Below, in pieces: positions 2,220 to 22,084 of a DNA stretch of 24,000 nucleotides. Every line of letters starts with the position of its first letter. Positions within the stretch are counted from its first letter, which is position 1. Source of the DNA: an uncultured Pelosinus sp. (GTDB lineage Bacteria; Bacillota; Negativicutes; DSM-13327); the NCBI GenBank assembly GCA_963526485.1, contig CAURNS010000006.1, forward strand, positions 179,863-203,862, in the 5' to 3' direction. Below the pieces are notes generated by a model. That model was not told the DNA's origin. It worked only from the letters and a program-made list of their open reading frames with translations, and ran no database searches. Both the position numbers and the translations under genes were made by a program.

Positions 2220-2322
2220 TATTTAGGTTATGCCGAAAGCGAAGTGTACGATTTCTTCATGCCGTCATGGCTGCTCGTGCAATAGTAGATACACTCGCAT
2301 TATCAAAAAGAGGAGGAATAGT

Positions 2323-4290
2323 ATGTCGGAAAATCAAACTAACGTTATCCCACCTGAGCCACCCATGTCACCTCATAAAGACTATCAGGAAATCAATTCT
2401 TATGTTGTATTTTGGGGACTATTTTATGCTGCTATATTTGCTTTAGCCGTTGGCTATCTTTGCTTGAAGATAGGCCAGACCGTTGACGCATTTGCTCCGG
2501 TTTCAGTCATGGCCATGGGCATGGCTGTCATGCTGAAACGTAAAAATGCGTTTCCGGAGAACGTCCACATTCAGGCTATCGCCAGTGCGGGCACTAACGG
2601 TATTGGCGGTGCCATGTTTATCCTGCCTGCCTTTTATATTCTGGGGAATAACAGCATGAGCTATTTTCAGATGACCGTGCCAATTATCCTTGGCGGTCTC
2701 CTGGGCGTTCTTATTGCCGCCATATTCCGCCGCTACTTTTGTGAAGAAATGCACCATGCCTATCCCTTTCCAGCCGGACGGGCAGCTGCAGAAGTTTTAA
2801 CTTCCGGTGAAGGCAGTAAAGCAAAACTCATGTTATTCAGCGGAGCTATCGCTCTAATTTATGATTTTATCCTGAATAGCTTGGGATGGTGGCAAGAAGT
2901 GATTGCCAGCACTACTTTTAGCTGGGGACAACAATTAGCAGACAAAGCCAAGCTGACCTTCAGTCTGGACAATGAATCCGCACTTCTCGGTATTGGTTTT
3001 TTCACGGGCTTGCGCTATGCCGCGATCATTACGGCTGGTTCTTTCTTTGCTTGGTTCGTGTGTGTTCCTGTCATTTATTACTTGGCAGGAGACCATCACA
3101 TGCTGGTAAACGGCAAGGATATCCTGCTGGCCAATGCCCCCATCAGTGCAGTATTTCGTGAGTATGTACGCCATATTGGTATTGGTATGCTGGCCATGGC
3201 TGGTATCATTGGACTGTTATCGATGTCCAAAGTTGTATCAAATGTAGTAAAGACTGTTATTACCGGCTTGCTTACAAGAAGCAGCGATATGCAGCAGTCC
3301 TTACAGCGTACCCAAAAAGATATTCCCATGCCCCTCATTGTTAGCGGCATTGTTGTTATCATGTTGTTATTCACATTATTCTTCCATGTCTTTTTGTCTC
3401 AGAATATCCTGCAAACACTGCTCGCCTTAGTGATTGTTTTAGTTTTCTCCTTCCTGTTCTCTGTTGTCGGTATAAGTTCCATTGCCTTTACTGGTAATGA
3501 ACCGGTTTCCGGCATGACGATTTTCATGATTATCGTGTCTGCGGTAATCTTAGGCAGTACTGGAATGCATGGCGATTTAGGAATTACAGCCATCTTGATG
3601 ATGGCAGCGTTTCTTTGCACCACGTTAGGTGTGGCGGGCAACTTCATGTCAGAACTTAAAGTGGCTCATCTGCTGGGAGCAACGCCACGCAAAATGCAGC
3701 AGTGGCAATTGGTTTCTACAGCCTTGACTGCTGTTTTGTCCATAGGAGTCATCTTACTGCTCAACCAAGCTTATGGCTTTGTCGGTCAGGGAGCACTGCC
3801 TGCACCTCAGGCGAATGCCATGGCAGCCATTATTAAACCTCTGATGGAAGGAGGAGCCGCTCACTGGCCGCTTTATATGGCAGGTGGTTTCTTTGCCATC
3901 ATTCTTTGGATGATTAAGGTTCCACCTTTGGCTTTTGCTCTGGGTGCATATTTACCAATGGAAATTAATTTGCCCCTTTTAGTTGGTGGTCTGATTTCTC
4001 ATTTCGTTTCTCACAGCAGTAAAGATGATGTGCTAAATGCGTTACGTCTCAACAAAGGTGAAACGATCGCCTCTGGCTTCATTGCCGGCGGTGCCATTGG
4101 CAGCTTGCTGAGTGCTGTATTGCGTATCATGGGTTTCAACTTCTTCCTGGAAGAATGGGTAGAGACACCTGCTGCTACCTATCTGGGTGTTCTGTTTTAT
4201 CTGCTGCTTTGCGCCTTACTCTATAATAAAGCCATAAATGCCAAATCTACGCTTAACGATAGCAGTTTAGGAAAATCAGTAAACAGTTGA
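2323..4290 (+). CDS. OPT-family oligopeptide transporter (integral membrane protein)
   Basis: The ORF is 2230-4290. I prefer the ATG at 2323 (MSENQTNV...) because AGGAGG at 2311-2316 lies 6 nt upstream, and the sigma-54 promoter puts the transcript start near 2230. The protein is polytopic and hydrophobic, with OPT-like motifs (YLCLKIGQTVDAFAPVSVMAMGMAV, ENVHIQAIASAGTNGIGGAMFILPAFY). Confidence 0.85.
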   Translation: MSENQTNVIPPEPPMSPHKDYQEINSYVVFWGLFYAAIFALAVGYLCLKIGQTVDAFAPVSVMAMGMAVMLKRKNAFPENVHIQAIASAGTNGIGGAMFILPAFYILGNNSMSYFQMTVPIILGGLLGVLIAAIFRRYFCEEMHHAYPFPAGRAAAEVLTSGEGSKAKLMLFSGAIALIYDFILNSLGWWQEVIASTTFSWGQQLADKAKLTFSLDNESALLGIGFFTGLRYAAIITAGSFFAWFVCVPVIYYLAGDHHMLVNGKDILLANAPISAVFREYVRHIGIGMLAMAGIIGLLSMSKVVSNVVKTVITGLLTRSSDMQQSLQRTQKDIPMPLIVSGIVVIMLLFTLFFHVFLSQNILQTLLALVIVLVFSFLFSVVGISSIAFTGNEPVSGMTIFMIIVSAVILGSTGMHGDLGITAILMMAAFLCTTLGVAGNFMSELKVAHLLGATPRKMQQWQLVSTALTAVLSIGVILLLNQAYGFVGQGALPAPQANAMAAIIKPLMEGGAAHWPLYMAGGFFAIILWMIKVPPLAFALGAYLPMEINLPLLVGGLISHFVSHSSKDDVLNALRLNKGETIASGFIAGGAIGSLLSAVLRIMGFNFFLEEWVETPAATYLGVLFYLLLCALLYNKAINAKSTLNDSSLGKSVNS

Positions 4291-4332: not shown

Positions 4333-5445
4333 TTGGATCCAAGAGTTCGGAAATTGGCTAAAAATCTAATTGGTTATTCTACGAATCTGCAAAAAGGTGA
4401 GAAAATCTTAATTGAGATGTTTGATGATGCACTGCCATTGGCTAAGGCTTTAGTAGAAGAAACGTATCGGGTCGGAGCCATTCCTTTTGTTACCGTAAAA
4501 AATAACAAGATTCTTCGCCAGCTAATAAAAGATGCTGGCATTGAACAACTGAAAATGATTGCCCAATGGGAAGCAGCACGTATGAGCAGTATGGATGCTT
4601 ATATCGCGATCAGGGCTGCTGAAAACATTAGCGAATGGTCTGATATTTCCTCGGAACAAATACAGCAATACCAGCAATATTGGAATAAACCTGTACATAT
4701 GGATATTCGTGTTCCCAAAACAAAATGGTGCGTTCTGCGCTATCCAAACAACTCCATGGCTCAATTGGCAAATACAAGTTCAGAAGCCTTTGAGGATTTC
4801 TATTTCAATGTATGTAATCTGGACTATGGAAAAATGGCTAAAGCGATGGATCCTCTGATTGAATTAATGCAGATCACAGATAAAGTTCACATCATAGGCC
4901 CGGGTACAGATCTTACTTTTTCGATACAATCCATTCCAGCGGTAAAATGTTCCGGCAGCATGAATATTCCTGACGGTGAAATATATACTGCACCCGTTAA
5001 AAATTCAGTAAATGGTCGCCTTACGTATAATACCCCTTCTATTCAGGGTGGTGTTACTTATGAAAATGTCCATTTTGAGTTTACTAATGGAAAAATTACT
5101 AATGCCACTGCCAATGATACAGTCAAGCTCACTAAACTTTTAGATACGGACGAAGGTGCCCGTTACATCGGCGAATTTGCCTTAGGTGTAAACCCCTATA
5201 TTACGACACCAATGAAAGATACTCTATTTGATGAAAAGATCAAAGGCAGTTTTCATTTCACTCCGGGTAATGCTTATGACAACGCCTTTAATGGCAATCG
5301 ATCTGCTATACATTGGGATCTGGTATGCATCCAAACCCCGGAATACGGCGGCGGGGAAATATGGTTTGATAATCGCCTGATCCGTAAAGATGGCCGTTTC
5401 GTCATCCCTGAACTTCTGGGGCTAAATCCAGAGAATTTATTGTGA
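4333..5445 (+). CDS. ampS: aminopeptidase, M29 (AmpS/PepS thermophilic metalloprotease) family
   Basis: TTG start with GAGGGGG 8 nt upstream. The N-terminus MDPRVRKLAKNLIGYSTNLQKGEKILIE and the motifs PDGEIYTAP, GEFALGVNP and FDEKIKGSFHFTPG are typical of M29 aminopeptidases. It starts 42 nt after the OPT gene with no hairpin between them. Confidence 0.85.
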   Translation: MDPRVRKLAKNLIGYSTNLQKGEKILIEMFDDALPLAKALVEETYRVGAIPFVTVKNNKILRQLIKDAGIEQLKMIAQWEAARMSSMDAYIAIRAAENISEWSDISSEQIQQYQQYWNKPVHMDIRVPKTKWCVLRYPNNSMAQLANTSSEAFEDFYFNVCNLDYGKMAKAMDPLIELMQITDKVHIIGPGTDLTFSIQSIPAVKCSGSMNIPDGEIYTAPVKNSVNGRLTYNTPSIQGGVTYENVHFEFTNGKITNATANDTVKLTKLLDTDEGARYIGEFALGVNPYITTPMKDTLFDEKIKGSFHFTPGNAYDNAFNGNRSAIHWDLVCIQTPEYGGGEIWFDNRLIRKDGRFVIPELLGLNPENLL

Positions 5446-5512
5446 TGTTTCCAACTTGAACAAGGCAAATGTATTAATAAAAAAATTAGAACATTCAAGG
5501 AGCGTGTGTCAT

Positions 5513-6880
5513 ATGAGAAAGAAATTACTTAAAACTTTGATCCTGGGATCTTTATTGAGCCTGTCAACAACGGCTTTTGCTGCTAATCCTTTTGAACTTG
5601 TCCCAACGACGAACTGGACTTATGATGCAATCGGCAGCCTGGTGCAAGGCGGTGTCTTTGAAGGTTACAGAGATATTAATTTCAGCAAGAATCAAACCTT
5701 TACCCGCTACGAACTGGCTACTTTTGTTGGTAAAGCATTAGCTAATGAAAATAAGGCAAATGCTGAGCAAAAAGCCACAATTGATAAATTAGCAGTAGAA
5801 TTCAAAAGTGAGCTTGCAAACCTGGGAGTGTATACCACTGCCACCGCTCCTGCAACTCCTATAACACCAGCCTCTGCGGCTGCAGCAAATACAGCCGGCA
5901 CTGCTCCTGCAGCCGATCCGGTTCATGTCAGCGGTAATTTTAAGTATGAATACCGCAGCAACCAGGATAAAAATTTCGGTGTAACGAATTATGGAAACCG
6001 TTTTTTATATGGTATCAATCTTGATTGGAAAGTTGATGATTCTACAGCCTTCTTTGGCCGTGTTGCCGGTGAAATCAGCCAGCTGGGTAATACCACCCAC
6101 AATGGCAGTCCAAATGATTTTAAGCTGGATGAATTCGGGGTAAAAGTCACGAAGGATGGCTGGAATTATTCAATTGGTCGTCAAGGTGTTCAACTTGGTC
6201 AGGGCGGTGTATTGTATTCCGGTGTGGATTGGGCTTCTCCACTGACCTATTTCGACGGCGTTGTCGTTACCAATAAGTTGGGTAAAGTTGACCTTAAGGC
6301 TATTGCCGGTCGAACTAGTGCTATTACTGAAGCTGATGTTGCTCTTGTGGGTGGTGCCCCTAGTGATCCTACGCAAAAATGGTATGGTATTGACTTGAGT
6401 CAAGATATTAACAAAGACGTCAACGTTGGTGTTGTTTTTGCAAACAGAAAGGCCGCCCCGAATGCCCATGCCGCCACCCTTACGAACCCTAACGATGGCT
6501 CTACCTACTGGAGTGCTTATACAACGGTTAAAGGCGGCAATGTCACCTGGACCGGTGAATATGTTAAATCCAACGCCGCCACTGAAAACAAAGCTTATGA
6601 CGTAAGCGCCACCTACAAATTTGACGATAAAAATCGTGTTACAGTCCAATACAATCACGTGCAACAAAATGCAACCGATTGGGATAACGCCCTGATTGGC
6701 GGAGAATATTTCCCTAACTACTCTGCTTTTTACAATGGCTACAAAGGAGAATATTACAATTATCACCACACCTTCACCAAAGCCTTTAGTTTTAATGCAG
6801 ACTACTACGCTCTCAAACCACTGTATGATGCTAAGGCAACGGATGGCGAGTTTGATTTCAATTTGAGATGGCATTTCTAA
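5513..6880 (+). CDS. SLH-domain outer-membrane porin (OmpM-like)
   Basis: I prefer the ATG at 5513 (AAGGAG at 5497-5502), giving signal peptide MRKKLLKTLILGSLLSLSTTAFA|AN. It is followed by an SLH domain (NPFELVPTTNWTYDAIGSLVQGGVFEGYRDINFSKNQTFTRYELATFVGKAL), a short coiled-coil-like stretch, and an Ala/Pro/Thr linker (5834-5920). The rest is a Gly/Tyr/Asn-rich region of alternating beta-strand character ending in ...NLRWHF (aromatic C-terminal OMP signature). Confidence 0.8.
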   Translation: MRKKLLKTLILGSLLSLSTTAFAANPFELVPTTNWTYDAIGSLVQGGVFEGYRDINFSKNQTFTRYELATFVGKALANENKANAEQKATIDKLAVEFKSELANLGVYTTATAPATPITPASAAAANTAGTAPAADPVHVSGNFKYEYRSNQDKNFGVTNYGNRFLYGINLDWKVDDSTAFFGRVAGEISQLGNTTHNGSPNDFKLDEFGVKVTKDGWNYSIGRQGVQLGQGGVLYSGVDWASPLTYFDGVVVTNKLGKVDLKAIAGRTSAITEADVALVGGAPSDPTQKWYGIDLSQDINKDVNVGVVFANRKAAPNAHAATLTNPNDGSTYWSAYTTVKGGNVTWTGEYVKSNAATENKAYDVSATYKFDDKNRVTVQYNHVQQNATDWDNALIGGEYFPNYSAFYNGYKGEYYNYHHTFTKAFSFNADYYALKPLYDAKATDGEFDFNLRWHF

Positions 6881-6952: not shown

Positions 6953-8137
6953 CTATCTTCCATAGTACTGCAAAGTTTCTTCCATTCTTTTTAGTGCTTC
7001 CAGCACTTTATCTTGCTGAGTACCCAGGTTCACTCTTATATATCCGTCTCCATCCTTTACAAAGTGAGCTCCATTTTCAACTAATACGCCTGCCTTTAAC
7101 GCCAGAATACTTGTAATCTCTTCGGAGGTGAGTCCCGTTTCTTTTATATTTACCCATGCCAAATAGGATGCTTCCATTTTCATTACGTGGAGCTTGGGGA
7201 TTCGCTTTTCCAGATAAGATTGAAAAAGCTCATAATTTCTTTTTATATATGCGTTTACTGCTGAAAGCCATGGTTTACATTGCTCATAGGCCGTAATTAC
7301 GCCAATAATACCAAAAATGTTCGGGGAAGTGATGGAATTCTGTGTTAGTCTTTTTCTAAAACGATTCCTTAGCTGTTCATCGGGTATAATGGAGTAAGAT
7401 GTTTTTAATCCACCTAAATTAAACCCTTTATTGGGAGAGGTTACTAATATTAGATTTTCATAGCTTTCCTTTAGCTTCAAGACAGAATGAAATTCTCCCT
7501 CTACTATATGTTCTCCATGTACTTCATCCGAAATTACTATGGTGTTATTCTCTCGGCATAACCTTACCACTTCTGTTATTTCTTCTAAACTCCAAATCCG
7601 TCCTGACGGATTGTGAGGAGAGCAGAATAAATATAATTTTGGTTTATATGTTTCTAATTGTAATTTCAAGTTTTCAAAATCTATATAATAGCGCCCTGCT
7701 ACTCGCTTTAAACTATTATAGACTCTCTTTACGTCTTGCTTTTGTGCTGCGCTGTCAAAGGGATTATAAACAGGAGTACTCATTAAAACACAGTCTCCAC
7801 TTTTGCAAAAGGCCTGTATTAAATAGTGGATGGTGGATACGGTTCCATAAGATAATGTTATCCAATCCTTTTCAATTGTCACATGGTGCATATCATATTG
7901 CCATTTGGTCACTGCTTCATAAAATTCTTCATAGCAATAGGTATAACCCAGTACACCCCTAGAGATGGCTTTTTGAAAAGCTTGTGCCAGTTCCGGTGGT
8001 ATTTTAAAATCCATATCAGCAATCCACATGGATATAAAATTTTCTGGCACTGCACCAAAATTTTTTTCTATTATACTTCGGTCCCACTTTCTGGATTTTT
8101 CACTGATTCGATCCGTAACTTCATCAAAATTATACAT
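6953..8137 (-). CDS. PLP-dependent C-S lyase / cystathionine beta-lyase, MalY/PatB family (class I/II aminotransferase fold)
   Basis: 394 aa. The N-terminus MYNFDEVTDRISEKSRKWDRS...MWIADMDFKIPPEL is typical of MalY/PatB. The PLP-lysine motif is SPNKGFNLGGLK. GGAGGGAG immediately follows the stop of the upstream peptidase gene, with a 10-nt gap. Confidence 0.85.
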   Translation of the reverse strand: MYNFDEVTDRISEKSRKWDRSIIEKNFGAVPENFISMWIADMDFKIPPELAQAFQKAISRGVLGYTYCYEEFYEAVTKWQYDMHHVTIEKDWITLSYGTVSTIHYLIQAFCKSGDCVLMSTPVYNPFDSAAQKQDVKRVYNSLKRVAGRYYIDFENLKLQLETYKPKLYLFCSPHNPSGRIWSLEEITEVVRLCRENNTIVISDEVHGEHIVEGEFHSVLKLKESYENLILVTSPNKGFNLGGLKTSYSIIPDEQLRNRFRKRLTQNSITSPNIFGIIGVITAYEQCKPWLSAVNAYIKRNYELFQSYLEKRIPKLHVMKMEASYLAWVNIKETGLTSEEITSILALKAGVLVENGAHFVKDGDGYIRVNLGTQQDKVLEALKRMEETLQYYGR

Positions 8138-8147
8138 TCTCTCCCTC

Positions 8148-9218
8148 CTAGATCACAACTAGCTCTCTTGTACTATTGGTAAGCGGACAGCAGCCATCCC
8201 CTGTAATTAGAATATCATCTTCTATTCTTACTCCGCCGATATTGGGAATATAGATCCCCGGCTCAATTGTAATTACCATGCCTTCTCTTAACATTTCGGC
8301 ACTGCCTGGCGCAATGGCCGGGAATTCATGCACCTGAATTCCCAGACCATGTCCCAAATTATGTCCGAAATAATCTCCATAACCACTTTCTGCAATGATT
8401 TTACGAGCAGCATCGTCCAATTCTCCCACGGTAAGATTCGGTTTTGCTTTTCGCATTGCTTCTTCTCCTGCAGCTTTTACAATCCCATAAACATGGGAAA
8501 GTTCTGTTGTACATGGCCCCAAGGAGATGGTTCTCGTAATATCAGAGCAATAGTTATTATAACGTACACCAAAATCCAGTGTGATAAGTTCCCCTTGCTG
8601 GATGATTTTGTCACTGGCCTTCCCATGGGGTAATGCGCCTCTTAGCCCTGAAGCTACAATGCAGTCGAAGGATTCTTTTTGTCCGCCTTGTTCTTTCATG
8701 AACCTGACTAACTCGTTCTCCACGTTTTTTTCACTCATACCTGCTTTAATATAGGAACAAATATGTTCAAACGTTGCATCGGCAATGGTACACGCTTTTT
8801 TGATCATTTCTGTTTCCGTCTCGTCTTTACTGCAGCGAATCTTGGATAAATCCATAGAATATAAATTACAGTTTACACTCTCTTGCAAAGAGCGATAAAA
8901 TTCATACGAAATCTCTTTTCCTTCAAAGCCAATTCTGTGTAATCCTTCTGCTGCTATGATTGAATGTAAGCGTTTCTCAACTGTATTTTCTCTGGAAAGC
9001 AGCACCACTTCATATTCTTTATTCTTATTCTTTATTTCTTCGAAATATCTAAAGTCCACTAGCATATATTGGTTATTCTTTGTTATTACAATATATCCAG
9101 AACTGCTAAAAAGCTCTCCAAGATAAAACTTATTATGAGGACTGCTTACTAGGATACCATCTAGCTCTTTTATTGCGATAAGCTTCCTCAATTCCGCAAT
9201 TCTTCTGCTGTAATTCAT
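8148..9218 (-). CDS. M24-family Xaa-Pro aminopeptidase/dipeptidase (PepP/PepQ/YpdF-like)
   Basis: The track ORF is 8148-9233 with a TTG start. I prefer the ATG at 9218 (MNYSRRIAEL...), which has GAGGAGAG upstream. Pita-bread-fold metal ligand motifs are present: LITLDFGVRYNNYCSDITRT, HNLGHGLGIQVHEFP, ITIEPGIY and VRIEDD. Confidence 0.85.
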   Translation of the reverse strand: MNYSRRIAELRKLIAIKELDGILVSSPHNKFYLGELFSSSGYIVITKNNQYMLVDFRYFEEIKNKNKEYEVVLLSRENTVEKRLHSIIAAEGLHRIGFEGKEISYEFYRSLQESVNCNLYSMDLSKIRCSKDETETEMIKKACTIADATFEHICSYIKAGMSEKNVENELVRFMKEQGGQKESFDCIVASGLRGALPHGKASDKIIQQGELITLDFGVRYNNYCSDITRTISLGPCTTELSHVYGIVKAAGEEAMRKAKPNLTVGELDDAARKIIAESGYGDYFGHNLGHGLGIQVHEFPAIAPGSAEMLREGMVITIEPGIYIPNIGGVRIEDDILITGDGCCPLTNSTRELVVI

Positions 9219-9234
9219 TGTCTCTCTCCTCAAT

Positions 9235-9274
9235 AAGAGTTGGAGAACTGACTGCTGTCAGTTCTCCAACTTTT
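9235..9274 (-). terminator. strong hairpin between the EIIC and peptidase genes (possible partial terminator or RNA-processing/stability element)
   Basis: GTTGGAGAACTGAC (9239-9252), loop TGCT, GTCAGTTCTCCAAC (9257-9270). This is a 14-bp perfect stem that extends by A-U/G-U pairs to 9235-9274. On the minus-strand RNA it is followed by UCUUAUU and then the peptidase RBS. Confidence 0.45.
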
Positions 9275-9279
9275 GTCTT

Positions 9280-10506
9280 TTATTCATTCACAATCAGTTT
9301 GCCATCTTTTATCAGCTTATTTCTGTATAAGACATTTATCACTGCAATAAAGGTCGATCCAATGATTAACCCTAAAATATAAGGAATAATACCTTTTATT
9401 AATGGCCAAGCCCAAATGGCAGATTCAGGAAACCATTGAACAGCTCCCAGCGCTATTGCTGACATTGCCCCTACAATAGCACCTGTTACATAGAGGGGAA
9501 TACAAAAAGTTGGTCTTTCCAGGGCAAAAGGTATAGAGCCTTCGGAGATTCCCATAAAGCCTAAAAAAATTGCGGTTTTTCCCAATTGATAAAATTGCTT
9601 GTCATATACGCTTCGTCCTACTAATTTTCGATCGATCAATGTGCTTAAGCCTAAACCAAAAGAAGGAATGACAATTGCCAAACACCTTGCGGTAATGGGC
9701 AGAATCTTTTCTGTAGTAAAGCCAAGGGCTACAAATCCAGCAGCTTTATTTACAGGTCCTCCTAAGTCAAAGGCTGTAGTCGCTGCCAGTACGAAGGCAT
9801 AAGCAAATTGTCCTGCACTTCCCGCTGCCTGCAGCAGATCTTTTATTAACGTATTGATCCAGCCGCCAAAAGGAGTAATGATAAATACCATTAATACTAA
9901 GCAGGTAAAAGCAGATATCAGGGGAATTAAAAATGTAACCTTAAACGCAAGCCAATCATGAGGCATTGTAATCTTCTGATTCAACCATTTCACAAAATAT
10001 CCTATCATAAAGGCAATAAGTATCGCTCCTAGGAATCCAGACGCGATCGGCGCTTTTGTAACCCATTTTCCATCTAATAACGTTAACATGGCAACCGGTT
10101 TTGTCGCTATATATCCTCCGATAAATCCTGCTGCCAACGCAGTCTTACCGCCGATAGAATTTGCCGTGAAGGCTGTAAAAATAGGAATTGCAAAACCAAA
10201 CAGTGTGAATCCGAAAATTTCCATAATACTAGCGAACTGAAGCATCACAAAGCTGCCACCAGCATATTTTCCTGAATTGACTGCCTCTACTATGGATACA
10301 GAGGGATCTATATTAAAGAATACATAAGGAATGACCTGAGAAATAGCACCAATTAACCCGCCCATAATAAGTATCGGTATCATATATGAAATTCCTGTCA
10401 TGATATGTTTACTAAATTCCAGCCAGCCAGAATTCGCAGCTATATTCTCATTGATTTTGCCAGTGCTCGCTGACGTTGAGCCAATGATTTTTTTCGTAAC
10501 TGCCAT
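9280..10506 (-). CDS. PTS fructose-family EIIC permease component
   Basis: 408 aa and polytopic. The N-terminus and the loop GFMGISEGSIPFA resemble fructose-like EIIC (FrwC/FryC type). AGGAGGG precedes the ATG. Confidence 0.85.
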   Translation of the reverse strand: MAVTKKIIGSTSASTGKINENIAANSGWLEFSKHIMTGISYMIPILIMGGLIGAISQVIPYVFFNIDPSVSIVEAVNSGKYAGGSFVMLQFASIMEIFGFTLFGFAIPIFTAFTANSIGGKTALAAGFIGGYIATKPVAMLTLLDGKWVTKAPIASGFLGAILIAFMIGYFVKWLNQKITMPHDWLAFKVTFLIPLISAFTCLVLMVFIITPFGGWINTLIKDLLQAAGSAGQFAYAFVLAATTAFDLGGPVNKAAGFVALGFTTEKILPITARCLAIVIPSFGLGLSTLIDRKLVGRSVYDKQFYQLGKTAIFLGFMGISEGSIPFALERPTFCIPLYVTGAIVGAMSAIALGAVQWFPESAIWAWPLIKGIIPYILGLIIGSTFIAVINVLYRNKLIKDGKLIVNE

Positions 10507-10529
10507 GGTACCCTCCTATAATTATTATT

Positions 10530-10853
10530 TTATTGTGCCAAATCGTCCTCGATTTCCTTAATTACACCCTTGGGATTTTTTATAATTTCCTGAAGACCAA
10601 CTTCATACACTTCATAGCCTTCGAACCTTTCCATACCAAGTGGTGTAACCGCAACGGCATGAATGATAATATCAGCCTCACGGATATCAACAGCTGTTAA
10701 TTCATTTTGAATACCATCAGCCCCCTGTGTTTCGACTTTTATATCATAGCCCATTTCTACAGCCACTTTTCGTATTGCCTCTGCCGCCATAAATGTATGT
10801 GCCAAACCCATTGGGCATGCACATAAAGCAATTATTTTTTTTGACATTTTCAT
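10530..10853 (-). CDS. PTS fructose-family EIIB component
   Basis: The active-site Cys motif IALCACPMGLAHTFMAAEAI matches the fructose-type IIB signature CP.G.AHT.MAAE. The start could instead be the second ATG at 10847, which has better Shine-Dalgarno spacing. Confidence 0.85.
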   Translation of the reverse strand: MKMSKKIIALCACPMGLAHTFMAAEAIRKVAVEMGYDIKVETQGADGIQNELTAVDIREADIIIHAVAVTPLGMERFEGYEVYEVGLQEIIKNPKGVIKEIEDDLAQ

Positions 10854-10870
10854 TTCTCCTTTTTTATAAA

Positions 10871-11326
10871 TTAGCTATGTATTGCTTGCATGATCAGTAA
10901 AAAAAGTTCTTCTTTATGTGTAGCGTTCAGTAAGTTCTTTTTAAATTCTTCATCTACCAGTTTTCTTGCAAGACTTGCAAGAAGTTCCAGATGGACATTG
11001 CCCCCTTGTTCATTACGACTTAAAATACTGATAATAATCTTTATACCCTCTTCCGCACCATCTCCCCAGGAAACTTCTTGCCGTGGTTTTAGTATTAATA
11101 TCGCCGGTTTTAAAATATAATCAGATTTTGTGTGAGGAATGGCAATTCCATCGCCTAAATTTGTCACAAAAGCTTGTTCCCGACTGAGTAAGCCTTCATA
11201 GATACCCTGTTCATCTCTACCAATACCTAACCCCATTGCAAGTTTTGCAATATGCCTTAAATAAGCATTTTTGTCTTTTAAGTCTAAATTCAAGTTAATA
11301 TGTTCTCTGGTAAATACTTCACTCAT
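10871..11326 (-). CDS. PTS EIIA component (fructose/mannitol/Ntr EIIA-2 type)
   Basis: 151 aa with the phospho-His motif LGDGIAIPHTKS. Its GAGGAG Shine-Dalgarno (11335-11340) overlaps the stop codon of the upstream regulator gene. Confidence 0.85.
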   Translation of the reverse strand: MSEVFTREHINLNLDLKDKNAYLRHIAKLAMGLGIGRDEQGIYEGLLSREQAFVTNLGDGIAIPHTKSDYILKPAILILKPRQEVSWGDGAEEGIKIIISILSRNEQGGNVHLELLASLARKLVDEEFKKNLLNATHKEELFLLIMQAIHS

Positions 11327-11339
11327 ATAAACGGCTCCT

Positions 11340-13253
11340 CTACTTTACATCTAATACTTCCATCAGCTTATCAAAGCTAAAGTTCTTGATAATCCTTCTA
11401 ACTTCGCCTTCGTCCGCGATAAAATGATACAAATATTTAAACATGGCAAAGTTATAACTCTCTTTTTTATTGAAACAAACCATGAAGATTAATTGTACTT
11501 CTTCTTTATGCCACTTTATCGGTTTTTCCAGCATTCCTACACCAATGATTGATTGATAAGCCCCTTCTAAAATGGTATGGGGAATCGCCACCAAATTGCC
11601 AATATCAGTGGATGACATTTTCTCACGTTCCAGTACCATTGCGATAATGTCGTCATTGATAAATCCTTTGTCTTTCATTGCTCTGCCAATGCATTTGATA
11701 GCGTCTTCCGGTGTTTCTGCTTTGATCCTCAAAAACGCTTCTTTGTTAAAGGTTGCTCTAAATATCCTCTTTCGTTCTTCCTTCTCTTGAAAAACCTGAT
11801 GTAATTCATTTACAATTTCATCAGAAAATACATTTTCTATATACAGGACCGGTACCTTGAAATCTTTCTGCTCTAGTTTTACTGTGGATACGATAAAATC
11901 AATATCCGCCTTTAACGCTATATCTAAGTATCTTACAGGATAGGTTCCGATTATATGAATATCACTGATTCTTTGTTTTAGCTTTTCTGTCAGCAGCTGT
12001 GAGGTGCCAATGCCATAGTGGCAAATAATACAAACTTTCTTGCCGCTAGTACTCTTTTTTCGTTCAAAAGCTGCACCAAAATGCATGGTTATAAATCCGA
12101 TCTCATCCTCATCCAAGATTACATTGCATTCTTCTTTAAGTTTCTTTGCCATAATGGCGGCAAGATTGGTTTCCACGGGAAATTTAGCCTTTATTTGTTT
12201 AAGCAAAGGATTCTTAGCACTAATTCCGGCTTTGCACCGATTCATAAAAATCTTTAAATGCATCACTAATGCATCTATGAAATCGGAATCTTCTGTAAAA
12301 TCAAGATCAGTAACCATACTGATTTCTCTAAGAGCTTCTGTTACTACCTGTTGTACCCCATCTTTTGTATCTACAGTAAGTTTCATCCTTGTATTGTAGT
12401 CATAGATAATGATGCCGCTGCTTGCTGATACATAAAGCACTTCATTCTCATCTATATCTACAGCAAGTTTTTCCCCTATTTTATTCATAATGGTTTTTAT
12501 CACATTATAGTTATGAAGCCGATAGTTCTCTTCAAACACATTTCTGTTAATGATACAGTTATTCCGTATTCGCGCCACAGAGATAATCACTCTTGTTAAT
12601 AGTATAGTGAAATCTTTATCGGCAAGAATAATATGGCCTGAATGCAGCTCTTCCGTAATCACTGTTTCAATAACTTTCATGTCGCGCTTTGAAATACTAT
12701 CCAATCTCACTTCCAGGAAATTATTTTCATCACCTTTTACGGCATAATGCAACATCAGCTCTCTTACTTTACTTTCTTCACCCACTATTTTACTTCCATA
12801 AAAAGGCTTTGCTACAATTTTTAAATCATATTCTTGTAAAATACTTTTTACACTGGCAATCAGCTTATTCGTACTTGCTATACTCAAATTCAGGATCTCA
12901 CTTAGCTCATCGGCATTGATATAACTCCTATTAAAAAAAGCACATAAAATTTTTGTAATTCTACCTTCTGTAGAATCATCTATTTGGAAACCAGCTAAAT
13001 ACTCTGCCGCTTCCTTGTTAATCCTCCGGATCTCCTTTGCTGCCCCTGCCAGCTTGTATCCAACACCTTTCTTCGCAAGGATCTCTGCACCATATTTAGA
13101 AAAGTAATGATTTAAATCCTGGATATATCGCTTGATTGTTCTCACCGATATCGTAAATTGCTGACTTAATTCTTCCGCTGTAACATATTCATCTTTTTCA
13201 TTAAGATAACGTACCATCATAGAATGTTTTTTACTTATCATTCTCTTCACCAT
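11340..13253 (-). CDS. PRD-domain transcriptional regulator with N-terminal HTH and C-terminal EIIB-like and EIIA-like domains (MtlR/LicR/ManR class)
   Basis: 637 aa. It has an HTH (VTAEELSQQFTISVRTIKRYIQDLN), PRD-like His segments (ALVMHLKIFMNR, FITMHFGAAF), an EIIB(Gat)-like segment KVCIICHYGIGTSQLL and an EIIA-like segment GNLVAIPHTILEG. The start is ambiguous between 13253 and 13241. Confidence 0.85.
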   Translation of the reverse strand: MVKRMISKKHSMMVRYLNEKDEYVTAEELSQQFTISVRTIKRYIQDLNHYFSKYGAEILAKKGVGYKLAGAAKEIRRINKEAAEYLAGFQIDDSTEGRITKILCAFFNRSYINADELSEILNLSIASTNKLIASVKSILQEYDLKIVAKPFYGSKIVGEESKVRELMLHYAVKGDENNFLEVRLDSISKRDMKVIETVITEELHSGHIILADKDFTILLTRVIISVARIRNNCIINRNVFEENYRLHNYNVIKTIMNKIGEKLAVDIDENEVLYVSASSGIIIYDYNTRMKLTVDTKDGVQQVVTEALREISMVTDLDFTEDSDFIDALVMHLKIFMNRCKAGISAKNPLLKQIKAKFPVETNLAAIMAKKLKEECNVILDEDEIGFITMHFGAAFERKKSTSGKKVCIICHYGIGTSQLLTEKLKQRISDIHIIGTYPVRYLDIALKADIDFIVSTVKLEQKDFKVPVLYIENVFSDEIVNELHQVFQEKEERKRIFRATFNKEAFLRIKAETPEDAIKCIGRAMKDKGFINDDIIAMVLEREKMSSTDIGNLVAIPHTILEGAYQSIIGVGMLEKPIKWHKEEVQLIFMVCFNKKESYNFAMFKYLYHFIADEGEVRRIIKNFSFDKLMEVLDVK

Positions 13254-13291
13254 CCGACAACTACATTGTAAACCCTTTCACCATCCATGTA

Positions 13292-13320
13292 TTTATACTA
13301 AATGCCTTCATAAGTGCCAT
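13292..13320 (-). promoter_or_regulatory. candidate sigma-A promoter for the regulator/PTS operon
   Basis: The minus strand reads ATGGCA (13320-13315), a 17-nt spacer, then TATAAA (13297-13292), in the 75-nt gap after the dipeptidase gene. The -35 match is weak. Confidence 0.3.
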
Positions 13321-13328
13321 ACATTAGC

Positions 13329-14705
13329 CTATAAGTTGCCAAGCTCCCATAAAGCTTCTGCATAAATAGCAATGGCTTTTATAAAAGCATCCTCACTTCC
13401 ATACTCTCCCGCCATATGAGCATTGCCTGCCGATTCATCAGGGAATTCACCGCCGAAAATTACCGAATTCTCCATCTCTGCTGCATAAGTCCCTGCACTG
13501 GTGACTCTTATGGGATTCTTTCTGTCGCCTGTATGCTTCACATAAATTTCGTACAGCTTTTGTACGAGCAGGGAATCTGCGTCCAGGTAATGGGGCTTCT
13601 TATTATGGATGACTTTTACCTCATAGCCATTCATACTTTTCTGTTGAAAGTGACTAAAGACTTTTTCCTGGATAACTTCCATGGCTATATTTTCCGGATA
13701 CCTGATACTTAAGGTTAGATGCAACTTACCATTTTCCAGACAGAATATAGTTGGAACCATTGTAAGGGTGCCGCATTGCCCTGCTGTATCCAAGCCAAAG
13801 ATCTTTCCATCTCGATTATCACCTCCAAATAGAGGGGTCAAGTCTTCCAGCCATTTCTCCTTTACCTCCCTATGCAAGAGCTTAAACACTTTTTCAATTG
13901 GATTATTTGCTTTCTCTGGTTTAGAGGAGTGCCCGCCAAGACCAATCAGTTTGAAACCTATCACATTACTTTTATCCTGAATAGATTCCAACGTAAGATT
14001 TTCCTCTTGCAAAAATTTTTCTGCCGTTTCTTGGCCAATCGTACTATTTTTAACTACAATATAGTTTGGAATCGTATTATGTACTTCTCCTGCTGCGATC
14101 TGCAACGTTTCGTTCTCTATCTTCCCACTGATCTGAAGTACCATTCCGCCCTTCTCACCGTTTATTACCGGAAATTTAGCATCTGGTGTAAAGCCATAGG
14201 TTGGTTTCGGTTCCTTTGCAAAATAGTATCGAATACACGCAAAGCCATTTTCTTCATTACCGCCAGCAACGATTCTAATTTTGCGTTTTACAGGGAGAGC
14301 CGTATCCTGAATCATTTTTAAAGCAAAAAATGCAGCCAGTAAAGGGCCTTTATCATCTATCACACCTCGGCCAATAAGCTTATCTCCAATCTTTAAAAGC
14401 TTAAAGGGATCACTGTTCCATCCTTCGCCTGCCGGTACCACATCACAGTGGCCAAAGACATAAACATATTCCTCACCTTTTCCATATTCAATGTGTGATG
14501 CGTATCCATCTACAGATTTTACAGTAAAGCCTGCTTCCTCCCCCTTATTTTTAAACCATTCTAACGCTTCTGCCACTCCATTGCCAAAAGGTCTAGTCGG
14601 TGAGACTGTTTCATTACTATATACAGAAGAAATACTTACCCATTGAGCCAAAAGCGTACTAAATTCTTTTCTATATTTCTCTGCCTCTATTACAAAATTT
14701 ATCAT
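13329..14705 (-). CDS. pepV: M20-family dipeptidase (PepV/Sapep-like)
   Basis: The track ORF extends to 14789. I prefer the ATG at 14705 (MINFVIEAEKYRKEF...), preceded by AAAGGAGGA. M20 motifs are present: GHCDVVPAGEGWNSDPF, GRGVIDDKGP and GGNEENGF. Confidence 0.85.
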   Translation of the reverse strand: MINFVIEAEKYRKEFSTLLAQWVSISSVYSNETVSPTRPFGNGVAEALEWFKNKGEEAGFTVKSVDGYASHIEYGKGEEYVYVFGHCDVVPAGEGWNSDPFKLLKIGDKLIGRGVIDDKGPLLAAFFALKMIQDTALPVKRKIRIVAGGNEENGFACIRYYFAKEPKPTYGFTPDAKFPVINGEKGGMVLQISGKIENETLQIAAGEVHNTIPNYIVVKNSTIGQETAEKFLQEENLTLESIQDKSNVIGFKLIGLGGHSSKPEKANNPIEKVFKLLHREVKEKWLEDLTPLFGGDNRDGKIFGLDTAGQCGTLTMVPTIFCLENGKLHLTLSIRYPENIAMEVIQEKVFSHFQQKSMNGYEVKVIHNKKPHYLDADSLLVQKLYEIYVKHTGDRKNPIRVTSAGTYAAEMENSVIFGGEFPDESAGNAHMAGEYGSEDAFIKAIAIYAEALWELGNL

Positions 14706-16369: not shown

Positions 16370-16416
16370 CATAAGGCTCAACTGCAGTTCCATGTGAACT
16401 GCAGTTGAGCCTTATG
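16370..16416 (-). terminator. 21-bp perfect hairpin downstream of the 171-aa gene
   Basis: CATAAGGCTCAACTGCAGTTC (16370-16390), loop CATGT, GAACTGCAGTTGAGCCTTATG (16396-16416). It lies 50 nt after the stop at 16467. The U-tail on the minus strand is weak (GAUUGUAAGUAAAUUU). Confidence 0.5.
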
Positions 16417-16466: not shown

Positions 16467-16979
16467 TTACTTGAAATCATTGATCAACCTGGATTCAAAC
16501 ATATCAAACTCTGCATGATAGCAGTGAACATGAGGAAAAGGAATGGCAAACGCTTTCTTTTCCAAGCCTCTTTGTACCATAGCATCTAAGTGCTGATCAG
16601 TGAAGCCATATAAATAAATAAGATTATGTCGATCATATGCAATGGTTGCATTCGATTGGGGTGAATGCAGCCATACATCATGGCGTGAATCCTTTTCGAA
16701 AAAATCTTTAAAATCGGTAAATAAAGTACTCACTTCGCTATAGGACATCTCTTTACTTTGATATCTACCATGTTCACTATTGGTATGTGAAGCATGCAGT
16801 ACATATAAAATACAAAAGGGCTCGCAAAGCTGAGCCGCTAATTTCAAAACTGTATCGACATGACTTTTAGATAGTCCCATTACAACTCTTTCCAGATCGC
16901 TGTTCTGTTCCAAATGATATACATCAGGATAAAAATATTCCTGCAATTCATTATCTTTATGATAACCCAGTTTAAACAT
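16467..16979 (-). CDS. hypothetical protein, no recognisable family
   Basis: The track ORF extends to 17015. I prefer the ATG at 16979 (MFKLGYHKDNELQEYF...), with GAGGAG 7 nt upstream. It is 171 aa, soluble-looking and His-rich (LHASHTNSEHGRY, FPHVHCYHAEF). I recognise no motif. Confidence 0.6.
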   Translation of the reverse strand: MFKLGYHKDNELQEYFYPDVYHLEQNSDLERVVMGLSKSHVDTVLKLAAQLCEPFCILYVLHASHTNSEHGRYQSKEMSYSEVSTLFTDFKDFFEKDSRHDVWLHSPQSNATIAYDRHNLIYLYGFTDQHLDAMVQRGLEKKAFAIPFPHVHCYHAEFDMFESRLINDFK

Positions 16980-17206
16980 GGAATCACTCCTCATCGATTT
17001 CCTACTCACTGACATATGCCAATTTTGTTAGAGTTAAGCACCAGTGAGCAGTAAGCGTCTATCTCAATATACTTCTGATACTGAGTTGTAAACACCTTAA
17101 AGAATTCCCCGTCCATATGGGAATTCATCTGAAAGATTATAGACATAAAATCTTTATAATTAGTAAATCTTGAAATTCAGCATTTATTAGTCTTAGATAA
17201 CTATAT

Positions 17207-21826: not shown

Positions 21827-21929
21827 TAAAAACCCTCCTTTAAAACTGTAGCTTGTCAGTATCTTGCTGCTTTCCCTGTATGAAGGCAGCAAACTTTTAC
21901 AAAACCAGTCTTTGAGAAGGAAGAACCTT

Positions 21930-22055
21930 CTCTTTCAACGCCTACGAGGTTAGCTGACGGATTCGGACAGAAAGAAATTGCCCTACCTGCTAAACAGGAT
22001 TCACCCCATAAATGGGTCCCCCGCTTCCGATAAGTGAAATTCGGCGATTGCCTTA
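21930..22055 (-). promoter_or_regulatory. ydaO/kimA-class (c-di-AMP) riboswitch aptamer in the 5' leader of the DapB-like gene
   Basis: The minus strand reads GGCAATCGCCGAATTTCACTTATCGGAAGCGGGGGACCCATTTATGGGGTGAATCCTGTTTAGCAGGTAGGGCAATTTCTTTCTGTCCGAATCCGTCAGCTAACCTCGTAGGCGTTGAAAG. This matches the remembered ydaO-motif blocks AATCGC, AGCGGGGGACCCA, GGGGTGAATCC, GGTAGGGCAA and CCGAAnCCGnCAGCTAACCTCGTAAGCG. Local hairpins CCGA/TCGG, CCCA/TGGG and CCTG/CAGG fall where that fold expects them. Confidence 0.8.
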
Positions 22056-22084
22056 TGATTATGGAAATAAAAAGCATATACTAT

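Follow-up and report, generated by a model that had tools for sequence, protein, structure and literature searches.

A fry-type phosphotransferase operon with peptidase and PatB-family lyase genes in an uncultured Pelosinus sp., a candidate system for the use of sugar-amino acid or sugar-peptide conjugates

Operons of the bacterial phosphotransferase system (PTS) that carry peptidase genes, such as fry and frv, or a C-S lyase gene, as in malXY, have gone unexplained since the genome of E. coli was read. The fry operon is transcribed in E. coli in the order fryB-fryC-ypdF-ypdE-fryA and comprises EIIB and EIIC, a YpdF-type M24 peptidase, the M42 peptidase YpdE and the multidomain protein FryA. 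An operon that joins both kinds of pairing lies in the DNA analysed here, a window of 24,000 nucleotides from an uncultured Pelosinus sp. (GenBank assembly GCA_963526485.1, contig CAURNS010000006.1, positions 179,863 to 203,862 of the forward strand; all coordinates below are those of the window), whose best protein matches are Pelosinus-like Negativicutes. On its minus strand, from 14705 down to 6953, seven open reading frames (ORFs) follow one another: an M20 peptidase, a PRD/HTH regulator, EIIA, EIIB, EIIC, an M24 peptidase and a PatB-family lyase. The genes, their strand and their coordinates had been proposed in an earlier reading of the sequence alone (the sequence-only reading), and the ORFs together with profile searches of each protein bear them out. 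That reading had also held that no substrate is known for PTS-peptidase or PTS-lyase pairings, and this agrees with the open-access literature, in which we found no substrate or function for fry, frv, CD2484-2491 of Clostridioides difficile or the Listeria genes. We propose that the block probably serves the breakdown of some conjugate between a sugar and an amino acid or peptide. A full mechanism, in which this conjugate consists of one amino acid or a short peptide with a sugar that is most likely alpha-linked mannose, is put forward more tentatively, as possible rather than probable.

The relationship to fry is apparent from the permease. The EIIC (9280..10506, with a PTS_EIIC domain) is 51% identical to E. 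coli FryC over the full length of 408 aa (E = 3e-149) and 28% identical to the IIC domain of MngA, and E. coli FryC nests within the family of the window's EIIC in a tree rooted on MngA. Since the protein scores 141.3 bits on the fructose-specific EIIC model TIGR01427, under the cut-off of 157.55, it should not be named a fructose transporter, which on these comparisons would be an annotation of convenience. With this score and the 28% identity to MngA, it does not fall inside a clade of characterised fructose or mannitol transporters, an outcome that the sequence-only reading had left possible. The EIIB (10530..10853; PTS_IIB) is of the fructose type, with 94.5 bits on TIGR00829 (cut-off 76.85), and the EIIA (10871..11326; PF00359, PTS_EIIA_2, 109 bits) is a separate 151-aa protein of the fructose/mannitol type. 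The translations contain a CPMG motif in EIIB and an AIPH motif in EIIA, which we take to be the respective phosphorylation-site motifs. The M24 protein (8148..9218) is 47% identical to E. coli YpdF, whose structure, 5cnx, is its top match in the PDB; it combines a pita-bread domain (PF00557, Peptidase_M24, 232 bits) with a creatinase-type N-domain (PF01321, Creatinase_N, 69.5 bits), and its best match is the YpdF equivalog NF007310, yet at 348.7 bits it stays below the cut-off of 393. Because the EIIC is 51% identical to FryC and the M24 protein 47% identical to YpdF, the block is by sequence a fry-type operon, whose core EIIB-EIIC-M24 is the fry arrangement. These identities, with a lyase that passes the PatB model (see below), uphold the view of the sequence-only reading that a fructose-family PTS-peptidase pairing is here joined with a PTS-lyase pairing. 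Relatedness to Fry was judged from the alignment with E. coli FryC itself and not from NCBIfam models: the best EIIC and EIIB models were at one point read as FryC and FryB, an identification that was dropped as probably wrong, since their lengths of 359 and 106 aa suggest FrwC and FrwB.

Like the window, the E. coli operon has EIIB-EIIC followed by a YpdF-type M24 peptidase. It also has the M42 peptidase YpdE and the multidomain FryA, whereas the window has no M42 peptidase and no protein containing EI or HPr; the window, unlike the E. coli operon, has a PRD activator, a PepV-type M20 dipeptidase, a PatB lyase and a separate EIIA. On its fryA side the E. coli MG1655 operon directly adjoins pyrS/pyrR and the AraC-type gene ypdC (L081 672-3988). 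The former, a sensor kinase and response regulator, are presumably pyruvate-sensing; pyruvate is also a predicted product of the lyase in the Bacillota versions of the operon, and this may be coincidence.

The wider distribution of the operon was followed over 80 genome loci with 10-kb flanks, drawn from aligned diverse EIIC homologues and typed by tblastn, an ORF-based survey being unreliable in GC-rich loci, where antisense ORFs were picked. The identical seven-gene order occurs in 16 of them, in several Bacillota families, and because the same order recurs in 16 of 80 independent loci it exceeds chance. The sequence-only reading had allowed that the EIIC-peptidase-lyase linkage might not be conserved in related genomes, an objection that decisively fails. 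The arrangement of the window, (M20)-regulator-EIIA-EIIB-EIIC-M24-lyase (type A), accounts for 19 loci, 16 of them with all seven genes, in Pelosinus, Lucifera, Clostridium, Caloramator, Anaerosolibacter, Geosporobacter, a Tissierellales metagenome-assembled genome (MAG), Romboutsia and four C. difficile genomes; here the M20 gene is conserved directly 5' of the regulator gene. About 17 loci (type C; Caproiciproducens, Hungatella, Lachnospiraceae, Erysipelotrichaceae) insert an M42 gene, in the order regulator-EIIA-EIIB-EIIC-M24-M42-lyase. Smaller groups are formed by the enterobacterial fry order EIIB-EIIC-M24-M42-FryA (four loci; Serratia, Citrobacter, Salmonella arizonae), by LacI-M20-EIIB-EIIC-M24 (six loci, in Rahnella and a related Enterobacterales genome) and by a minimal EIIC-lyase pair (three loci, two in Streptobacillus and one in Mycoplasmatales). 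Peptidases accompany the lyase in 33 of the 37 lyase loci, and a regulator is present in 60 of the 80. Public genomes already contain the gene set under scattered annotations ('fructose PTS', 'Xaa-Pro aminopeptidase', 'MalY/PatB family protein'). The further neighbours annotated around it include no glycerate kinase, deglycase, secreted protease or other glycosidase that would name the aglycone, the genes found being lineage-specific, and the flanks of the lyase-less Rahnella and enterobacterial loci hold housekeeping genes only. Cell-wall genes (Mur ligase, FemAB, MupG) near three loci were judged coincidental. The Geosporobacter ferrireducens locus (L070 5874-16322) departs from the others in detail: it has no upstream M20 gene, a mannose-6-phosphate isomerase gene and then an M1-family peptidase gene follow the lyase gene, and the ORF before the regulator clusters with a Cof-type HAD phosphatase, as annotated on the cluster's member from L067.

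In a further variant the peptidases and the lyase are missing altogether. Directly 3' of the FryC-family EIIC gene stands a GH38 alpha-mannosidase gene in 31 of the 80 loci and M24, M42 or PatB-lyase genes in 47, the contig being too short in the other two. The GH38 loci, of composition (regulator)-EIIA-EIIB-EIIC-GH38, come from Proteiniclasticum, Streptococcus suis, Granulicatella, Leptotrichia, Anaerococcus and others. Their GH38 protein, of about 885 aa, occupies the peptidase/lyase position and aligns end to end, at 36% identity, with E. coli MngB, which splits 6-phospho-mannosyl-glycerate into mannose-6-phosphate and glycerate (PMC2815779). A peptidase gene is never found inside the operon next to GH38; at just two of these loci a weak resemblance to M20 or M42 turns up, several kb away. 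The permeases do not follow this division. GH38-linked and peptidase/lyase-linked EIICs interleave in the tree, the Streptobacillus EIIC-lyase loci being nearest to Leptotrichia EIIC-GH38 loci (73-77% identity), and the window's own EIIC is 70.6% identical to GH38-linked EIICs as against 61% to those of type C and 51% to the peptidase-linked EIICs of E. coli. No column of the EIIC alignment separates the two types, and in 141 of its 396 columns both types share one residue that is at least 90% conserved. Since the EIICs of both types interleave and no column discriminates between them, the simplest reading is that the permease would recognise the same moiety, an alpha-mannoside, in both contexts, with GH38 on the one hand and the lyase with its peptidases on the other as alternative endings of one pathway.

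A second line of evidence comes from a sugar-phosphate enzyme. Profile searches found no kinase, isomerase, aldolase or glycosidase in 6953-14705 or in the rest of the 24-kb window, so that the remark of the sequence-only reading that such enzymes are missing stands for the block and its surroundings; it does not extend to the orthologous operons, which carry mannose-6-phosphate isomerase. In three separate lineages, loci of the peptidase/lyase type come with a type-I mannose-6-phosphate isomerase (Pfam). Its gene follows the lyase gene directly and in the same direction in Geosporobacter and at three Caproiciproducens loci; in C. difficile, Romboutsia and a related Clostridium it diverges from the M20 gene, and the intergenic region between the two holds a second copy of the candidate operator described below. 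By a rough, uncomputed estimate, one or two isomerase genes per few-Mb genome correspond to a chance of about 1% per 20-kb stretch; three independent recruitments are for that reason unlikely to be accidental and point to mannose-6-phosphate as the sugar product.

The enzymes themselves appear to be catalytically competent. In the M24 protein the metal ligands D215, D226, H290, E319 and E333, whose spacing we take to match the metal-ligand set of prolidase, are at least 97% conserved over 44 operon-linked orthologues. The M20 protein (13329..14705), a dipeptidase of the PepV/Sapep type, scores 351.6 bits on the Sapep/PepV subfamily model TIGR01887 (cut-off 207.95) and 376.6 bits on the PepV equivalog NF005591, below its cut-off of 435; its top PDB matches are 3khx and 1lfw, and 22 orthologues keep its metal-binding and catalytic residues H86, D117, E151, E152, D175 and H430 at 97% conservation or more. 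The last gene (6953..8137) encodes a beta (C-S) lyase of the PatB/MalY family, dependent on pyridoxal phosphate (PLP), which scores 350.8 bits on the PatB C-S lyase model TIGR04350 (cut-off 340). Its top PDB match is PatB (6qp3, 254 bits; 6qp1-6qp3 are among the nearest structures), with 171 bits for MalY (1d2f). In 38 operon-linked orthologues K237, D204, N176 and R368 are at least 97% conserved, K237 being presumably the PLP lysine, D204 and N176 PLP-contacting residues and R368 the carboxylate-binding arginine. Even for lyases merely 27-31% identical to that of the window the PatB model is still the best, with 320-348 bits around the cut-off of 340. One of the most distant (27%; 319.6 bits on TIGR04350, just below the cut-off) is encoded in a Mycoplasmatales MAG (L045 9221-12925), where a fused EIIABC gene is followed by the lyase gene and then by a RidA-family (Ribonuc_L-PSP) gene. 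RidA quenches the 2-aminoacrylate released by beta-eliminases. All three enzymes of the window, judged by these residues, retain their catalytic apparatus. The sequence-only reading had offered as an alternative that the peptidase and lyase act as regulators in the manner of MalY; with catalytic residues conserved in 44, 38 and 22 orthologues, and a RidA-family gene after one lyase, a purely regulatory role appears unlikely. No solved structure represents the operon lyase clade, since 4DGT, which we take to be a C. difficile entry and which was considered as the structure of the operon lyase, was rejected: when the C. difficile operon lyase is compared with the PDB, this entry comes no higher than tenth, with 211 bits.

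A conserved inverted repeat, TG(G/T)C(A/C)CT(T/A)-N5-(G/A)(G/A)CA, lies between the M20 and regulator genes, with TATAAA(T/C)ACA and a TACAAT box following it. Searched as TG[GT]C[AC]CT[TA]N5[GA][GA]CA, the motif has 24 matches in 1.47 Mb on both strands, and 21 of these lie at the operons: 15 are 64-79 nt 5' of the regulator gene (type A) and six upstream of the M20 gene (the C. difficile group). The window has its own copy on the minus strand at 13319-13303, TGGCACTTATGAAGGCA, 50-66 nt 5' of its regulator gene. The repeat is a candidate operator of the PRD activator, in which case the operon would control its own expression through a promoter near 13270-13265. Across the intergenic stretches of L002-L007, compared by eye, TACAAT keeps a fixed distance from the operator, and the TACAAT at 13265..13270 (minus strand) is the probable -10 box of the regulated promoter. 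The window has no operator copy upstream of the M20 gene. Because this gene lies upstream of the conserved operator and promoter, it probably forms its own transcription unit with its own promoter, or is joined to the operon by read-through only; no terminator stands between it and the regulator gene, and read-through is possible. The regulator gene (11340..13253) is as the sequence-only reading had it except for its start, which is likely at 13241 (ATG ATA), where a GGTGA ribosome-binding site and a Met-Ile start are conserved in the orthologues. Its product comprises HTH_11, Mga, PRD, a weak PTS_IIB-like match and EIIA_2 (Pfam), with a single PRD stretch reported (306-395). Regulators of the LicR/MtlR/ManR class, which carry two PRDs between N-terminal HTH/Mga DNA-binding domains and EIIB-like and EIIA-like domains, sense the phosphorylation state of the PTS through PRD and EIIA/EIIB-like domains.

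The mechanism that we envisage joins these parts as follows. While substrate is being transported, the activator would bind the inverted repeat at 13319-13303 and turn on its own operon. EIIC, EIIB and EIIA would import the conjugate and phosphorylate its sugar at C6, whereupon the PepV-type dipeptidase and the YpdF-type Xaa-Pro peptidase would trim away adjoining residues, leaving the glycosylated one with its amino and carboxyl groups free. The PatB-type PLP lyase could then beta-eliminate the sugar phosphate from the beta-carbon, the bond broken being C-O for Ser or Thr and C-S for Cys. Besides ammonia, this would yield mannose-6-phosphate (or its 1-thio analogue) and either pyruvate or 2-oxobutyrate, and an isomerase encoded elsewhere in the genome would feed mannose-6-phosphate into glycolysis. 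Sister loci would deglycosylate hydrolytically by their MngB-like GH38, with no need for peptide trimming. The scheme offers a reason why peptidases accompany the lyase and never GH38, for a PLP lyase needs a free alpha-amino acid and a glycosidase does not. O-mannose typically sits in Pro/Ser/Thr-rich segments of fungal, actinobacterial and animal glycoproteins, and an Xaa-Pro peptidase would suit such O-mannosylated segments. A sugar-amino acid or sugar-peptide substrate had been suggested in the sequence-only reading; that idea is the one favoured here, sharpened to a mannoside, and it is still something that we infer.

Several observations weigh against this proposal. The EIIC tree is a neighbour-joining tree without bootstrap support. 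The mannose assignment is guilt by association with GH38; the isomerase accompanies ten of the 47 peptidase/lyase loci and none of the 31 GH38 loci, and the C. difficile isomerase may simply be a housekeeping gene. The lyase is missing from ten peptidase-type loci (E. coli-like fry and Rahnella), and peptidases are missing from four lyase loci, which means that the two modules are separable and that the model has to call on housekeeping enzymes for the steps not covered. The PatB family has been characterised on C-S bonds, and we know of no precedent for PatB-type beta-elimination of O-glycosyl serine. Finally, the PTS genes of the C. difficile orthologue are induced by glucose (PMC3510511), which is odd for a system that serves a secondary substrate.

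In a rival account the cargo of the PTS is just a small sugar or mannoside of the usual kind (mannose, fructose, mannobiose or mannosylglycerate), with the peptidases and lyase as co-regulated scavenging helpers or MalY-like moonlighting regulators and no covalent conjugate at all. In C. difficile strain 630 the orthologous operon is CD2484-CD2490, with CD2485 as the M24 peptidase and CD2486-88 as the PTS. CD2485 and CD2486-88 respond alike to glucose and CcpA (PMC3510511), which fits co-transcription without proving it, and glucose induces both along with peptidases that release proline (PMC3510511), a point in favour of the rival account. The orthologue is expressed, which together with the common regulation of its PTS and M24 genes speaks for the conjugate, and it is up-regulated in germinating spores and early mouse infection according to earlier studies cited in a proteome preprint (bioRxiv 10.1101/598045). 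The separability of peptidases and lyase over the loci and the lack of any column distinguishing GH38-linked from peptidase-linked EIICs favour the rival account, as do the peptide-uptake genes (an OPT transporter and an M29 aminopeptidase) that adjoin the operon in the window. A regulatory role of MalY, which binds MalT, is documented (cited in PMC5845896). The main difficulty is that the enzyme genes are not added to the sole sugar-releasing enzyme, GH38, but replace it at the same position. The tight EIIC-M24-(M42)-lyase order, which extends from Enterobacteria to Bacillota and over three PTS families, is likewise hard to reconcile with loose co-regulation, and catalytic residues conserved to at least 97% would be needless for a purely regulatory role. 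We consider this account unlikely.

A strict cysteine S-conjugate is a less probable substrate, and a doubtful one. Here S-glycosyl or S-polyol cysteine, or Cys-Gly and Cys-Xaa derived from glutathione adducts, would be opened by the dipeptidase, after which PatB would release the thiol, and the enzymes lend themselves to it: the lyase scores above the cut-off of the PatB C-S lyase model and the structures closest to it are C-S lyases that act on cysteine conjugates, the M20 protein has a secondary match to the Cys-Gly-3M3SH dipeptidase model, and the combination of a dipeptidase with PatB is the logic of the malodour pathway of S. hominis. That secondary match, however, amounts to 215 bits, far below the cut-off of 1025, and the PTS requires a sugar hydroxyl that can be phosphorylated. 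The associations with GH38 and the isomerase point instead to an O-mannoside, a thio-sugar being no substrate for the isomerase, and natural sources of S-glycosyl cysteine are, as far as is known, rare.

A glycation product (an Amadori or Heyns compound, that is, a fructosyl or glucosyl amino acid or peptide), whose ketose the PTS would recognise and whose peptide the peptidases would trim, is very improbable: the PTS is fructose-family, peptidases are present and other bacteria use glycated lysine in a PTS-dependent manner, but no SIS-domain deglycase, fructosamine kinase or amadoriase is among the recurrent neighbour families annotated at the 80 loci, for which part of the neighbouring ORFs were screened, a beta-lyase cannot cut the Amadori C-N bond, and GH38 with mannose-6-phosphate isomerase fits mannosides rather than fructosamines.

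Returning to the mannosyl conjugate, the boldest element of the proposal is that a PatB-type beta-lyase substitutes for a glycosidase, such that O- or S-mannosyl peptides are taken up, 6-phosphorylated and trimmed, and mannose-6-phosphate is eliminated from Ser, Thr or Cys. Taken by itself we hold this to be unlikely. If true, it would amount to a new bacterial route of glycopeptide use and a new enzymatic solution to deglycosylation; it would supply a function for the cryptic fry operon of E. coli and for C. difficile CD2484-CD2491, and would explain the recurrent PTS-peptidase-MalY/PatB cassettes in three PTS families. If the lyase does not cleave the glycosidic linkage, what remains is a regulated operon with wide conservation. 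The exchange between GH38 and peptidases/lyase, the recurrent isomerase and the shared operator, which point to a mannose-linked substrate, turn the puzzle into a concrete and inexpensive experiment, and the identity of the substrate bears on nutrient acquisition by a pathogen, C. difficile.

Within the operon, the genes are closely packed, and the sequence confirms both junctions that the sequence-only reading had pointed out: the stop codon TAG of the regulator overlaps the EIIA ribosome-binding site GAGGAG, and the stop codon TAG of the M24 gene overlaps the ribosome-binding site of the lyase, TAGGAGGGAG. The EIIC-M24 junction is marked by a hairpin (9271-9238, minus strand) with a 15-bp stem, a 4-nt loop and a poor U-tract (-25.6 kcal/mol, z = -5.9). 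A hairpin is found at this junction in most of the 15 type-A and in three of the five type-C loci examined, often with a different stem sequence. The ribosome-binding site of the M24 gene lies within a few bases of it. As this leaves no space for a separate promoter before M24, the hairpin at 9238-9271 is likely a partial terminator or attenuator, or an mRNA stabiliser, within the operon rather than an operon boundary, and a transcript stop at this point with separate control of the peptidase-lyase pair is disfavoured. The stem core GAGAACUGA...UCAGUUCUC is conserved in sequence at L001-L005, L007 and L048 (Pelosinus, Lucifera and several Clostridium), with varying flanking bases; this exceeds what a plain structural terminator needs, and the core may be a recognition element for a protein or an RNase.

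Folding also supports the terminators that the sequence-only reading had placed on either side of the block. At its upstream edge the hairpin 14871-14834 (minus strand; -28.5 kcal/mol, z = -7.7), with the U-rich tail UUUGUAUUUUU, terminates the upstream malic-enzyme gene. The malic enzyme had prompted the idea of a bacillithiol-like Cys-GlcN-malate substrate, which was dropped because the gene is conserved at no other locus. The 3' end of the operon is formed by the hairpin 6949-6916 (-23.7 kcal/mol), a terminator in common with a convergent plus-strand gene for a porin-like protein (5456-6880, a weak match to the por_somb iron-uptake porin model). This is the last of three plus-strand genes between 2230 and 6880 that converge on the operon and end on the common terminator, the others encoding an OPT-family oligopeptide transporter (2230-4290) and an M29 aminopeptidase (4333-5445); the set was not seen at the other loci. 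Farther upstream of the operon, a 182-aa ORF without a Pfam match (16467-17015, minus strand) is followed by a perfect, terminator-like 20-bp hairpin (16370-16416). A cyclic di-AMP (ydaO-type) riboswitch (RF00379, 104 bits; 21925-22056, minus strand) lies 33 nt 5' of an ORF of the dihydrodipicolinate reductase family (DapB-like, 21892-21059), to our knowledge an unusual gene to stand behind a riboswitch of this type.

Beyond fry, the operon shares features with several known systems. In E. coli malX-malY, and in pairs from Aeromonas and a Cellulosilyticaceae MAG, a PTS permease gene adjoins a gene for a PatB/MalY-family lyase as it does in the window, but the permease is a glucose-family EIICB and there are no peptidases. 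The lyases of the Aeromonas and Cellulosilyticaceae pairs are 54-58% identical to that of the window and their genes directly adjoin the EIICB genes. In Aeromonas veronii (L084 7479-10245) the lyase and EIICB genes overlap at the end of an N-acetylgalactosamine-type PTS operon, and in the Cellulosilyticaceae MAG (L083 3679-10114) the order is PRD regulator-EIIA-EIIBC-lyase-EIICB, with no peptidases. E. coli MalY is more distant from the lyase of the window, as the 171 bits against 254 for PatB indicate, and is known mainly as an antagonist of MalT. The parts list of the window (PRD, PTS, two peptidases, MalY/PatB) is shared, as far as a likeness by description goes, with a cluster of Lactobacillus sakei LT-13, LACBS_00568-00576, which encodes PRD proteins, an aminopeptidase, PTS components IIA, IIB and IIC, an RDD-family protein, a second aminopeptidase and MalY (PMC5845896). 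Its PTS is of the lactose/cellobiose family, unlike that of the window, and in vitro work on its MalY showed amino-acid racemase and beta-lyase activity (PMC5845896). A module for amino-acid processing is thus found alongside PTS permeases that carry different sugars, as one would expect if their substrates have a glycosylated amino acid in common.

The remaining comparisons concern the logic of the pathway. In E. coli mngA-mngB a fructose-family PTS phosphorylates 2-O-alpha-mannosyl-D-glycerate and a cytoplasmic GH38 6-phospho-mannosidase frees mannose-6-phosphate, which is the logic proposed here; the window differs in having peptidases and a lyase in place of GH38, which is found in its sister loci only, and an EIIC with 28% identity to MngA. 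The thioalcohol pathway of Staphylococcus hominis, in which a dipeptidase and then a PatB C-S lyase act on Cys-Gly-3M3SH, involves a proton-coupled peptide transporter and no sugar. As would be the case in the window, a dipeptidase trims a conjugated dipeptide and PatB beta-eliminates from the substituted amino acid that is left; in contrast to the window, uptake is not by a PTS, and the window's M20 protein falls far below the model cut-off of that dipeptidase. The manR-manP-manA genes of Bacillus subtilis, finally, combine a PRD activator of the domain class found in the window, a fructose-family PTS and a type-I mannose-6-phosphate isomerase for the use of free mannose, with no peptidases or lyase, and it is this system that the Geosporobacter and Caproiciproducens variants of the operon, ending in an isomerase gene, resemble.

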